A stretch of DNA of 64,000 bases from a virus: the IMG/VR virus record IMGVR_UViG_3300020048_000042, positions 58,313 to 122,312 of that record. One strand, 5' to 3'. The translations under genes and the position numbers were made by a program. The first letter of the stretch is position 1, and each line of letters opens with the position of its first letter. Shown in pieces: positions 32,765-59,314 of the stretch. The notes beneath the pieces were generated by a model. The model saw only the letters and a program-made list of their open reading frames with translations, ran no database searches and was not told the origin of the DNA.

Positions 32765-32874
32765 TAGTCATGACAGGATTCAAACCTGTGACCTGAACCT
32801 GATGTATTGCATGCCATGGTAGGCTATCCTTTACATTTTCAGAGGTTCCGCTCTATCAGCTGAGCTACATGACT
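32765..32874 (-). tRNA. tRNA-Phe(GAA)-like gene with 35-nt insert at position 37/38
   Basis: Acceptor AGTCATG/CATGACT, D stem GCTC/GAGC, anticodon stem GAACCT/AGGTTC, loop CT-GAA-A|insert|C, variable AGGTC, T stem ACAGG-TTTGAAT-CCTGT; ends A-CTA rather than A-CCA. Confidence 0.7.
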
Positions 32875-43299: not shown

Positions 43300-43314
43300 A
43301 CCCAGTAGGTAGTC

Positions 43315-44217
43315 CTAAGACTCCAAAAACATGTCAATGACACTTTGGAATCTAGGATCAACACTGATTCTCAGTGCTGCAGTCTCTTTTGTGAGAGTTT
43401 CGCGTTCAACTTCTGCTTCTTGTTGAGCAGCTCTACGTGCAGATGTCCATGCAGTATAAGCATTGTGATACTCAGAATTGTACTGAGATTCCACTTTGTT
43501 ATACTCATTGAGCATCTCCGCATTAGCTCTAGCAATGCGTGCATTCTCCATAGTCACAAGGTTCTTAACCTTAGCTTTGAAGTAATTCACTCTTTGCTCA
43601 TACTCACGATGAAGCTTTGCCAACTCCTCATGCTTAGAATTAAGCTGAGCAGGAGTGTGATGTTTCACTACTTTGACAGGAGTCTTTTCTCCGTCTTTAA
43701 TAGTAATCCACTCCAAAGAGGCAATCTTAGTGATCTGATCACGTAAGACAGAAAGAATTCCACGCTTGTGGATGAACTGACCAATGTGGGAAGCATAAGC
43801 TTCTTGCTCTAAGTACTCGTTGTACTCAGCATCAGACAGTTGTTTCCAACCCCAATCCTCATCAACAGGATTAAGCGTAGTTATCTCATCAACTTCTACT
43901 CTTATAGGAGCAGGAATGTCATAGACATAACGCATATTCCTAATAGAAGTCAATTCACTATCCTTCGCTTTTAATGCTTCCATTAAAAACGCTTGAGTAG
44001 CGTGTAACTTTGCTTTCTCCATGAGCAACTCATTCACATCAGCAGGAAGAGGCATTCCTTCTTGCTGCTCGTAAGATTCACCTGCAATGGTGATAGACTT
44101 ACTCACGTTGTTCACTGAATCCAGTTGATCAGCAATGTTTTGTGCTCTCTGATTGCATAGGTTGCTAATAGATTGCGCTTGGGACATGCTTAAACCCTTT
44201 GTAGACAAGTTTCTCAT
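43315..44217 (-). CDS. alpha-helical/coiled-coil protein of unknown function flanked by structured RNAs
   Basis: 300-aa ORF (GLSMSQAQSISNLCNQRA...EAYASHIGQFIH...YEQRVNYFKAKVKN...I.VDPRFQ); no catalytic motif recognised. Confidence 0.8.
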   Translation of the reverse strand: MRNLSTKGLSMSQAQSISNLCNQRAQNIADQLDSVNNVSKSITIAGESYEQQEGMPLPADVNELLMEKAKLHATQAFLMEALKAKDSELTSIRNMRYVYDIPAPIRVEVDEITTLNPVDEDWGWKQLSDAEYNEYLEQEAYASHIGQFIHKRGILSVLRDQITKIASLEWITIKDGEKTPVKVVKHHTPAQLNSKHEELAKLHREYEQRVNYFKAKVKNLVTMENARIARANAEMLNEYNKVESQYNSEYHNAYTAWTSARRAAQQEAEVERETLTKETAALRISVDPRFQSVIDMFLES

Positions 44218-44220
44218 AGT

Positions 44221-44880
44221 TCAGTTTTTAGAGATTTATAATTTGATTGAAAAAATTCATTTTGACGACTTGCCTGTGCTAGGAACACAGGACTTTGGGT
44301 TAAATAAGATATGCAATCTTGCAAAAACAAGATTTAAGTAATAGACAAATGTGATACAGTTTCCTACACTGCATTTAGACCGCTGAGTCTTCATTTGAAT
44401 TAAACTGGATTCCACTCCAGTCAGCTAACATTCTCCCAAGTGGAATCTTTGTGGAAGAGAATGGATAATGGCATACCACATATTACTGCTGCGGTCAACA
44501 GGTTCACACTGCCAGATTGCTCTCGTGTATAACACTGCCTAGTTTAAACTAAACTCACATAGCTTTATCAAAACACTATATGTAAAATACCTGATTTTAA
44601 AGTCTGCACTAACTTTGGATTATATCACTGCAAATGATAAATAGCACTGTAAATCTCTTTGCAGGAGAAATACAGAACCCAATAGTAGCCCCACAGGTTT
44701 GTCACTGTTTGCTAACAGTAATGATGGTTAGGTTCTCACCCTAACCTTATCCCCCATTCTGCTATGTTTCAAGACAGACCCAGGGATTGTTCATTATGTA
44801 CTCAGTTGAACTCTGGCCAGTAACTTACTGGATATTTGCCTGGTTAAAGAAAAGGCAACAATACTTCAAAGAAAAAACAG
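44221..44880 (-). ncRNA. ~650-nt hairpin-dense putative large ncRNA / leader
   Basis: No substantial ORF; at least ten stems (e.g. 44273-91, 44315-34, 44405-20, 44429-63, 44540-51, 44704-19, 44726-46, 44817-31), several with GUGAGAA/GUGGAA/GUAGGAA loops on the minus strand. Confidence 0.6.
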
Positions 44881-44881
44881 C

Positions 44882-45208
44882 TTATGATTCTAAAGGATCA
44901 AGAAGCCATTGGAAATCTTTCATTCTTTCTTCTGTAGAAATATAAGGCTCCTTGTAAAAAGCCTCAGACTCTAGTTCAGGATAACCATCTACTTTACGCA
45001 TAGACACAAAGTGATAGTACTCAAACTTACCTACTCTATGTTTGTACATATGCCCATAGTAAGAAAGCTCATTTTGCTCTACTTTGGCAGAGTCATCTTC
45101 TACATCTATAAGAGACGTAAGAGAAGAATAATACTCATCTTTACCAATAGGAAGAACTAGTTCCATGTAGGTAAGTTCTAAGTGTGCTAACATCTGTGCT
45201 TTTGTCAT
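44882..45208 (-). CDS. hypothetical protein
   Basis: 108-aa ORF. Confidence 0.5.
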   Translation of the reverse strand: MTKAQMLAHLELTYMELVLPIGKDEYYSSLTSLIDVEDDSAKVEQNELSYYGHMYKHRVGKFEYYHFVSMRKVDGYPELESEAFYKEPYISTEERMKDFQWLLDPLES

Positions 45209-45351
45209 TGTCTTGAGTGTTTATGTTGTGTATAGCTATCTACTGCACAACTAGGTTGTCAAAAAACTGGTGAAGATTGTTGTCAAAGAAATGTGGTGAT
45301 GGTGAATGACCACCACCACTCACACTCTCTAAACAACTAAAACTCAAGTGA

Positions 45352-57679: not shown

Positions 57680-59314
57680 ATGGCAACACCAGTTTTAAAC
57701 AACGGTCTGTTTCTAAGAGATACCAAGTACAAGGTATCATCTCACTTAGACTCATATCACCTTGTGAACATGTTGAAGTCAGCTGAGCCTATGGATTTAG
57801 GACCAGTTGATCTTTGGGCAATGTCACAGAAAGTAGAAATGCCTCTTTACCAAATGTCTTCATTTGGAGGTAAAAACACAATTTTGGTAGACACACCACG
57901 TGGCGAGTACAAGTGGCAAACTCCAATTGTACAGGATTTACCTTACATTACAGAAGATGTTGAAAATACTGCTTCAGTACTTGGTCAAGATGGAACTACT
58001 TTTAAAATCAAACTAAACCGTCGTGTATTTGGACATGGTGACATTGTCACTTATGACAAGTATCGTGGTTTGGAATTGTACGTAACAGCTGATGACATTT
58101 TACCTTCAGCAGATGGTTTCATCTACACAGTTCAGTTGGTAAACAACAACAACAATGCATCATTGGATCACAAATACTTGAAGCCTGGAACTAAGTTCTT
58201 TAGAAAAGGTTCTGCTCGTGGAGAGTATGGTGAAAGATTCTCTGACATTGGTGAATTGTCAAATGGTTTCCGTGAGTACTACAACTTTGTTGGTGGTGCT
58301 GAAGCTCACGTACACTATTCAGTTTCTTCTCGTGCAGAGATGATGTTGAAAGGTGGTTTGAACGCAGACGGTTCAGTTCCTGTAACTGAGATATGGAGAT
58401 CATTTGATCAAAACATGGATCCATCTATCGCAAACATTGACCAAATGTTAGCAGTAATGGGTAAAGAGTACATCAAAAAAGCATATGACAATGGTTCATT
58501 GACACGTTCTTTCTTGACGAAAATGGAAGCTGCTCACTTGACTAAGATTGCTACTGACATTGAGACTTACTTAATGTGGGGACAAGGTGGTCGTATCAAG
58601 CAAGATGGTCCAGATGATATTCGTTTATCTGTTGGACTTTGGGCACAATTGGATAACTCTTTCAAACGTATCTACAACAAATCAGGATTTACTCTTGAGT
58701 TGTTCCGTTCAGAGATATTCAACTTCTTCAATGGAAAAGTTGAGTTCAAAGGACCAGATCCACAACGTCAATTGATTGTTCAAACTGGTATGGCTGGTAT
58801 GAAATTGATCAACGAGGCAATCAAGAAAGAAGCATTTGGTATGGGTACAAGCACTATCCTTAACATGGATAAGAGTGGTGTTAACGCAGTATCTGGTACT
58901 AACGCTATGGACTTGAACTTTGGATTTGCATTTACAAGCTACACAATTCCTTTCTTGGCAAATGTGAAATTTGTAATCAACTCTGCGTTTGACAATGTTC
59001 ATACAAATGACATTGAAAATCCAATCATTGATGGTTTCCCATTGTCTTCTTACAATTTTATTATCTTTGATATCACTGATAACACAAATGACAACATCTT
59101 CTTGTTGAAATTGAAGTGGGATAATGAATTGAAATGGTTCTACCAAAATGGAACTATGGACTACATGGGTCGTTCACAAGGATTCCAGTCTTCTGGTAAC
59201 TTCAATGGATACCGTGTAATGATGACACAAACAATGCCTTCTATTTGGGTGAAAGATCCAACTAAGGTATTGAAGATTGTTATGAGAAACCCAATCACTG
59301 GTGGATCATTCTAA
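57680..59314 (+). CDS. major capsid protein (crAss-like, HK97 fold)
   Basis: 544 aa, strong codon bias, LMWGQGG, GLWAQL, QTGMAG, C-terminal NPITGGSF; position after scaffold. Confidence 0.88.
   Translation: MATPVLNNGLFLRDTKYKVSSHLDSYHLVNMLKSAEPMDLGPVDLWAMSQKVEMPLYQMSSFGGKNTILVDTPRGEYKWQTPIVQDLPYITEDVENTASVLGQDGTTFKIKLNRRVFGHGDIVTYDKYRGLELYVTADDILPSADGFIYTVQLVNNNNNASLDHKYLKPGTKFFRKGSARGEYGERFSDIGELSNGFREYYNFVGGAEAHVHYSVSSRAEMMLKGGLNADGSVPVTEIWRSFDQNMDPSIANIDQMLAVMGKEYIKKAYDNGSLTRSFLTKMEAAHLTKIATDIETYLMWGQGGRIKQDGPDDIRLSVGLWAQLDNSFKRIYNKSGFTLELFRSEIFNFFNGKVEFKGPDPQRQLIVQTGMAGMKLINEAIKKEAFGMGTSTILNMDKSGVNAVSGTNAMDLNFGFAFTSYTIPFLANVKFVINSAFDNVHTNDIENPIIDGFPLSSYNFIIFDITDNTNDNIFLLKLKWDNELKWFYQNGTMDYMGRSQGFQSSGNFNGYRVMMTQTMPSIWVKDPTKVLKIVMRNPITGGSF

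Follow-up and report, generated by a model that had tools for sequence, protein, structure and literature searches.

Weinberg and colleagues are said to have reported the hatchet ribozyme in 2015. For this self-cleaving RNA, found in 2015 and structurally resolved in 2019 (Zheng et al., 2019; PMC6561176), reviews still list the biological role as orphan (PMC6765202). Hatchets cut at the base of their first helix, P1, which comprises only 3 base pairs (bp) in 40% of them, and in about 90% the cut site is preceded, at a distance of a few nucleotides (nt), by a non-conserved and dispensable hairpin, P0 (Li et al., 2015; PMC4604424). Self-cleavage by the class depends on Mg2+. In the crystal structure of the env10 hatchet the product starts at the first P1 nucleotide, with pairs running from 1-19 to 6-14 and followed by C20-A22; conserved nucleotides are C20-A22, U28-G31, G63-G66 and A73-A75, and the exposed L2 segment ACGU pairs with a second molecule in the crystal, giving a 4-bp helix, and tolerates mutation with activity retained (PMC6561176). 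Here we describe a hatchet on the minus strand of a 64,000-nt stretch of viral DNA (the window; positions 58,313 to 122,312 of IMG/VR virus record IMGVR_UViG_3300020048_000042) that is fused to a conserved, structured extension of about 330 nt, hereafter the cargo, which ends in a second site resembling a hatchet substrate.

The ribozyme of the window resembles its class in possessing P0, P1-P4, the CAA linker, UGGG, GCAG and an A-rich L2, and in residing in a crAss-like phage, the usual setting of hatchets. It departs from the published hatchets in that its P4 carries two inserted hairpins, its L2 reads GACUU and not GACGU, and the ribozyme is fused to the conserved cargo with its terminal substrate-like site. 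The ribozyme as such was already on record, and what is new is the conserved cargo together with the layout of two sites. Literature searches combining the hatchet with phage, circular RNA or crAss turned up no account of a second site, of base pairing that joins L2 to the 5' flank, or of any conserved cargo.

Among other ribozyme-processed RNAs, viroid-like satellites, the Varkud satellite RNA and retrozymes (PMC7761336, PMC6765202) come close in that a unit-length RNA would share a ribozyme site at both of its ends. As in ribozyme-processed circular RNAs generally, the predicted ends would be a 5'-OH and a 2',3'-cyclic phosphate, and self-ligation would be possible in principle. However, viroid-like, Varkud and retrozyme RNAs arise from multimeric rolling-circle transcripts or DNA repeats in which each unit has a full ribozyme, whereas the window holds a single DNA copy with one ribozyme and a 9-nt substrate mimic, and its circle is only predicted. 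With the large noncoding RNAs (ncRNAs) GOLLD and ROOL the unit has in common a length of several hundred nt, a multi-helix structure, a phage origin, an occurrence in lake metagenomes and a neighbourhood of RNA genes, GOLLD itself being present in a relative of this phage (locus L009); unlike them, it matches neither model at E values up to 10 and has no sequence or helix order in common with either. To our knowledge, neither GOLLD nor ROOL has been described as attached to a self-cleaving ribozyme. Theta (hepatitis delta virus-like) and hammerhead ribozymes of phages are likewise small ribozymes in phage operons and are thought to define RNA ends; they differ from the present unit in belonging to other classes, in having one cut site per ribozyme and in lacking a conserved cargo. 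Perreault reportedly described, in 2011, hammerheads flanking prophage genes.

The hatchet ribozyme and its conserved cargo

The unit lies in a gene-free gap of 664 nt between the minus-strand open reading frames (ORFs) at 44882-45208 (108 amino acids, aa) and 43315-44217 (300 aa). A scan of the whole window against Rfam at the gathering threshold returned two matches, a hatchet and a transfer RNA (tRNA), the former being the hatchet self-cleaving ribozyme RF02678 at 44725-44589 on the minus strand (81.5 bits against a cut-off of 51; E 2.6e-15; model positions 1-133 of 133). On the evidence of the sequence, the gap holds a full hatchet ribozyme with the following parts:

44726..44746, minus strand: P0 hairpin of the hatchet (GGUUAGG-GUGAGAA-CCUAACC), 4 nt before cut site 1
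44589..44725, minus strand: hatchet ribozyme, RF02678
44721-16 with 44707-02, minus strand: P1 (UUACUG/CAGUGA), 6 bp
44701-699, minus strand: CAA linker
44698-94 with 44593-89, minus strand: P2 (ACCUG/CAGGU)
44604-00, minus strand: L2 segment GACUU

P3 is formed by GGCU/AGU.C and the base of P4 by UUGGGUU/AAUCCAA. Since the env10 product starts at the first P1 nucleotide and hatchets cut at the base of P1 (Li et al., 2015), the cut at site 1 is predicted to fall between A44722 and U44721. In a permissive scan of 44000-45100 at E values up to 10, only noise was found besides the hatchet, the best being CAESAR (23.6 bits, E 0.11), a chance-level hit, and there was no match to GOLLD (RF02032), ROOL, OLE, transfer-messenger RNA (tmRNA), RNase P or group I/II introns; the search is able to detect GOLLD, as shown by a score of 306 bits in L009. 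A check against Rfam, which the first-pass annotation had named as a way to refute a new RNA, consequently recovered a known family for part of the region, namely the hatchet, and none of the other families just listed. The proposal of a new large ncRNA held for the ~330 nt downstream of the ribozyme, which are conserved, show covariation and match no Rfam family, and failed for the 137 nt that are hatchet and whose P0 was the first hairpin it had listed.

How far the unit extends became apparent from its relatives. A pattern search with the 3' block returned 23 viral and 42 metagenome loci, and the hatchet and the extension were contiguous in every locus that was not interrupted by a contig end. 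The result was a set of 43 distinct full-length copies with 69-91% identity to that of the window, and copies of hatchet plus cargo came from crAss-like phage contigs of freshwater and, in some cases, marine origin. Members retrieved via the ribozyme core instead had an identical layout; six loci (L017, L025, L031, L052, L053, L197) proved to be chance matches to the 20-nt core and no hatchets. Mean pairwise identity was 0.33-0.35 upstream of site 1 and 0.83-0.98 within the unit, and from 3 nt after the predicted second cut it fell to 0.42 and then to 0.32, so that the conserved unit spans ~44725 to 44263. Region-wide stem density had previously been taken as the sign of one ornate RNA of ~650 nt. 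It does not exceed chance, with fold z-scores of -1.63 (whole gap), -0.74 (other strand) and -1.07 (3' 327 nt), none of them significant, and the support for a structured RNA comes from the comparison with relatives. Moreover, the 135 nt upstream of P0 (44881-44747) do not belong to that RNA, as they can be aligned only with the two nearest relatives, L002 and L003, and neither with L010 nor with any other locus. All the hairpins quoted in the first-pass annotation do occur in the minus-strand sequence at the mapped positions, and its statement that no long ORF occupies the region was borne out, none exceeding 62 aa within the 664-nt gap. Within the conserved unit there is likewise no sign of coding potential: the longest ATG-initiated ORF has a median length of 34 aa, and indels do not come in threes.

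The cargo and the variable segments within it are laid out as follows:

44541..44582, minus strand: E1 (44582-56) and E2 (44555-41), hairpins directly after the ribozyme
44464..44540, minus strand: variable domain V1 (alignment columns 231-313), absent in L002/L130 and L155
44405..44463, minus strand: E3 (44463-29; CAUUCUC/GAGAAUG) and E4 (44420-05; CUGGA-GUGGAA-UCCAG)
44346..44397, minus strand: three-helix domain, in which E5 (CAAAUG/CAUUUG, 44397-92 with 44351-46) encloses E6 and E7
44389-78, minus strand: E6, loop CAGC
44375-53, minus strand: E7, loop GUAGGAA (GCAGU-GUAGGAA-ACUGU)
44296..44345, minus strand: variable region V2 (alignment columns 442-515) with the hairpin AAUCUUG/CAAGAUU (44334-44315), replaced or missing elsewhere
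44273..44291, minus strand: hairpin E8 (CCUGUG/CACAGG), a second, P0-like hairpin (P0')

For the alignment of the 43 copies (A2), over which base pairs were counted, the Rfam alignment supplied the helices of the hatchet, and those of the extension were read from the sequences; RNAalifold missed the true hatchet fold, and the Rfam structure was adopted for that part. In A2, 97.4% of the cells were paired, compared with 34-42% when the partners were slid by 1-3 columns, and 23 pairs changed on both sides, a number reached by none of 500 shuffles. P2-P4 were paired in 100% and P1 in 97% of cases, with both-sided changes in P4 and its hairpin P4a, while the CAA linker, UGGG, GCAG and the A run of L2 were all present and invariant. 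At the position of P0, a hairpin of -5 kcal/mol or better was found in 27 of the 43 family members. Outside the ribozyme, pairs changing on both sides occurred in E1 (1), E3 (2), E4 (2), E5 (4), E6 (2) and E7 (6). E1 and E2 were nearly invariant, two further pairs of E1 changing on one side to or from a wobble, and neither E2 nor E8 varied in this set. Compensatory variants of the E8 stem appeared among the members retrieved via the ribozyme core, CCUAUG/CAUAGG in L194 and CCUGCA/UGCAGG in L198. As far as comparison of the copies goes, the ~330-nt extension is an uncatalogued, conserved and covarying structured RNA.

Two pairs of hairpin loops within this RNA are candidates for kissing interactions. 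The E3 loop UUCCAC (44445-40) is exactly complementary to the E4 loop GUGGAA (44415-10); this complementarity is kept in L149/L170, where the E3 stem has been replaced, and is seen again in the divergent loci L191/L196. Similarly, UAGG in the E7 loop (44366-63) has its complement in the E8 loop, CCUA (44283-80), and in L198 both loops are altered together, to UGGGAA with UUCCCA, which amounts to one compensatory event. The loops had been described as T-loop-like; they contain no T-loop motif, and for GUGGAA as well as for UAGG(AA) there is a partner loop of exactly complementary sequence instead. Found in dozens of lake phage contigs, the cargo is a structured RNA whose helices covary and which has two candidate kissing loops.

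A further loop pair lies in the ribozyme itself, where the two hairpins inserted into P4 expose 7-nt loops, CUGCAAA (44662-44656) and UUUGCAG (44635-44629), that are perfectly complementary. The former is invariant in all 43 copies, and the long-P4 subtype has UAUGCAG, with one mismatch; this pair may represent a third loop-loop contact or an alternative helix. V1 and V2 exist as several discrete, unrelated sequence types that are swapped or deleted, and the same types are common to copies with different P4 subtypes, suggesting recombination between cassettes.

A second substrate-like site at the 3' end of the unit

Directly behind E8 the conserved unit ends in nine nucleotides that are arranged like a hatchet substrate:

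44263..44271, minus strand: site 2, consisting of the clamp AAGUC (44271-67), the -1 nucleotide G44266 and UCA (44265-63), with the predicted cut at 44266/44265

The clamp AAGUC is complementary to the L2 segment GACUU of the ribozyme, and an unguided RNAalifold run paired these two segments and, in addition, UCA with the UGA that ends the 3' strand of P1. In this UGA/UCA pairing, GC is read in 39 sequences, AU in 3 and GU in 1. The same order of elements recurs in those of the collected hatchets whose P1 has 3 bp, where the ribozyme's own cut site reads ACGUC-N/UCA-GAAAA-UGA-CAA (the slash marks the cut), ACGUC being complementary to their L2 segment GACGU. Given this native layout, the unit of the window closes with all the elements of a hatchet substrate, namely a P0-like hairpin, a 5-nt clamp, a -1 nucleotide and a 3-nt P1 strand. 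The native site ACGUC-N/UCA was seen in L106, L109, L127 and other hatchets with a 3-bp P1, 17 nt before the CAA.

The generality of this layout was examined next. The motif looked for, within 500 nt downstream, was the complement of L2 base 69 followed by GUC-N/ and 3 nt able to pair with the 3' end of P1. It was present downstream of 111 of 112 distinct hatchets and in all nine families, as defined by their downstream sequence, compared with 2/9 families on the reverse strand, 1/8 upstream and 2/9 with a wrong base (three alternatives pooled). In the viral collection L2 base 69 was only G or U, and variants with A or C at this position amounted to a single locus. With U at base 69 the second site reads (A/G)AGUC, as in the window's family, L016/L066, L191-193 with L196, L188 and L199; with G (L2 GACGU) it reads (N)CGUC, as in L077, the gut crAss-like family and the families with a 3-bp P1. 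Each second site lies directly 3' of a hairpin. The 3 nt of site 2 that pair with the 3' end of P1 change accordingly, UCA or UCG standing opposite UGA and UUA opposite UAA. All the hatchet families sampled show this layout, including those in which the cargo is unrelated or only ~40 nt long.

Where the 3' strand of P1 ends in UGA, site 1 offers UUA, with a U.G wobble, and site 2 offers UCA or UCG, with a C-G pair, a difference that would help site 2 to invade after release of the 5' end. The comparisons further suggest that pairing of L2 with the 5' flank is a general property of native hatchets. This would account for the UC conserved in the Rfam consensus as well as for the ACGU dimer helix, seen in a product crystal from which the 5' flank is missing. 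The second site would in this way offer a structural reason for the conserved UC upstream of the cut and for a palindromic L2 helix that has been seen only as a crystal dimer. That the second site tracks the ribozyme's own L2 and P1 across the sampled families turns the natural role of the hatchet into a prediction that can be tested at the bench.

Predicted excision and alternative explanations

These features can be combined into a model in which the cassette, in the order P0, cut site 1, hatchet, ~330-nt cargo (E1-E7 with two loop-loop contacts), E8 and cut site 2, would excise itself. The ribozyme would first cut at the base of its 6-bp P1, between A44722 and U44721, during transcription. 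After transcription of the cargo, AAGUC (44271-67) would pair with the exposed L2 GACUU, and UCA (44265-63) would displace the freed 5' UUA, giving a 3-bp P1 in which C-G replaces the U.G wobble, so that the same active site could then cut between G44266 and U44265. The released RNA of 456 nt would carry a 5'-OH and a 2',3'-cyclic phosphate, the upstream messenger RNA (mRNA) would be left ending in a hairpin, and the mRNA downstream would start with a short leader lacking structure. The newly made ends would both be located at a single active site, where they might be joined into a circle, ligation by the reverse reaction or by a host RtcB being plausible. The predicted circle junction, ...CAAGUCG-UUACUGUU..., would itself be an ideal hatchet site with a 5-bp clamp and a 6-bp P1. 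None of the 201 DNA loci contained junction-like sequence, which is what a linear precursor encoded in DNA would lead one to expect. Predicted lengths from site 1 to site 2 are 385-482 nt in the window's family, 164-257 nt in the gut family (167-173 nt in many of its loci) and 273-336 nt in the families with a 3-bp P1.

That one ribozyme cuts both sites and releases the RNA 44721-44266 (456 nt), which is possibly then circularised, is the reading that we favour, although we see its chances as evenly balanced. If it is true, the product would be an excised RNA of defined length, possibly circular, and the cassette would constitute a natural route to circular RNA with a single ribozyme, which would be of interest to circular-RNA engineering. 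At the level of a guess, the released cargo would be a nuclease-resistant structured RNA acting in trans. A broader version, which we put forward tentatively and regard as somewhat doubtful, is that hatchets as a class are self-excising, possibly self-circularising cassettes, in which one core cuts both ends by means of the L2 clamp and a 3-bp P1 and joins them, the circle containing in the present case a new functional 330-nt RNA; pairing of L2 with the 5' flank in nature would then have left its traces in the UC conserved ahead of the cut and in the dimer helix that ACGU forms in the crystal.

A number of points weigh against excision by two cuts. Both cuts and any circle are predictions made from nucleotide sequences, and the 3-bp P1 would have to be assembled from distant segments. 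The covariation between P1 and UCA rests on 3-4 sequences and possibly on a single event, and the clamp is invariant within the window's family, its support coming from the comparison between families. In addition, the pattern by which most members were collected includes E8 and the clamp, so that their invariance is partly built in. Concerning the loop contacts, the complementarity of E3 and E4 is invariant in 43/43 copies and offers no covariation, and that of E7 and E8 is equally invariant in the 43-copy family. The window's phage encodes no RtcB gene. Finally, much of the same data would be explained by a clamp that stabilises the ribozyme and does not cut.

This last possibility was ranked as the main rival. 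Here the pairing of AAGUC with L2 would close the cargo into the ribozyme fold and stabilise or tune the cut at site 1, with no second cut and with the leader staying on the mRNA. The complementarity to L2 is indeed the strongest and most general part of the motif, and the L2 segment ACGU readily forms a helix in the crystal (PMC6561176). However, a clamp alone leaves unexplained why conservation continues for exactly 3 nt further and why those 3 nt can always pair with the 3' end of P1, and the whole site copies the native cut site of the 3-bp-P1 hatchets, ACGUC-N/UCA, together with a P0-like hairpin; we therefore consider it unlikely, if well worth keeping in mind.

Alternatively, the cargo might belong to an independent large ncRNA of the GOLLD or ROOL kind for which the hatchet only makes the 5' end, the 3' end being formed by termination or host nucleases and site 2 being incidental. 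The covarying helices and loop-loop complementarity of the cargo would suit such an RNA, as would a neighbourhood that collects RNA genes (GOLLD, tmRNA, a group I intron and tRNA arrays beside homologues of the 300-aa protein). The scan for terminators, however, detected none on the minus strand after E8, and the recurrence of the site-2 layout in families with unrelated or very short cargo would go unaccounted for, which makes this explanation rather improbable in our view. The earlier notion of a new large ncRNA, or else of an elaborate 5' leader, gave way to that of a cargo, neither a free-standing gene nor a leader bound to a single gene, within a ribozyme-bounded unit whose downstream gene differs between phages. 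A cis-acting leader or riboregulator of the 300-aa gene was nevertheless weighed, as the unit is co-oriented with its neighbours and ends 20-50 nt before the next start codon in about one third of the loci, including the window. The next gene is not the same from locus to locus, though, and the RNA is far better conserved than the neighbouring proteins, the copy in L010 being ~80% identical while its 300-aa protein is only 53% identical, so that regulation in cis appears quite improbable. Least of all do we expect site 2 to be the functionless relic of a second ribozyme lost from a decayed tandem pair, as it matches L2 and P1 of the upstream ribozyme in 9/9 families and is almost invariant in the 43 copies, whereas the sequence right after it is free to vary.

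Host phage and gene neighbourhood

The window comes from a 122-kb virus record of IMG/VR that is estimated to be 97% complete. Its major capsid protein (57680-59314, plus strand) matches the Pfam family Crass_capsid (4e-33), which identifies the phage as crAss-like, and its relatives come mostly from freshwater metagenomes, with a few of marine origin. That this freshwater 122-kb phage is crAss-like fits the hatchet being typical of the crAss-like group. A blastn comparison of 43300-45300 with 50,697 phage records gave no match, and Pfam and PHROGs searches with six flanking proteins returned nothing informative.

On either side of the unit the gap contains sequence of a different kind:

44747..44881, minus strand: lineage-specific spacer after the stop codon of the 108-aa ORF, outside the conserved unit
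44830-44816, minus strand: hairpin CCAGUAA/UUACUGG, within the spacer
44218..44262, minus strand: leader of the 300-aa gene (43315-44217), short, A/U-rich and non-conserved

The scan for promoters and terminators yielded one weak promoter-like site at 44915-44887, and fewer sites than in shuffled sequences. Homologues of the 300-aa protein brought in 11 loci, three of which carry a hatchet. In one of these collected relatives, L010, the RNA is nearly identical to that of the window from the 5' edge of the ribozyme to ...GGCAAGUCGUCAAAAU. The syntenic slot of the conserved unit is constant, lying among small genes with clusters c4-c2-c1-c0/c5 upstream and c11-c3 downstream, while the gene directly after the unit varies among the loci (clusters c3, c18, c23, c10, c2, c0, c9, c31 and c35). 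The varying next gene indicates that the unit is not the dedicated leader of a single gene, and a mobile element, considered as a candidate, was rejected since the unit stays in one syntenic slot and does not hop.

In related phages, RNA genes seem to accumulate in the slot beside the homologue of the 300-aa gene. GOLLD, a group I intron, tmRNA and tRNAs were observed there, the RNA genes lying at L009:5519-5933, L009:4265-4452, L011:5491-5879 and L007/L012:1147-2403, along with tRNA arrays of at least 8. Likewise, the DUF805b RNA motif (38.8 bits; cut-off 35.6) occurs downstream of the homologue of the 300-aa gene at L007:6749-6781 and L012:6749-6781. In the window itself, ARAGORN reported no tRNA anywhere, and the second Rfam match, at 32765-32874 on the minus strand, scores 51.2 bits as a tRNA and has a 43-nt insertion in its anticodon loop; this tRNA may be intron-bearing or disrupted.
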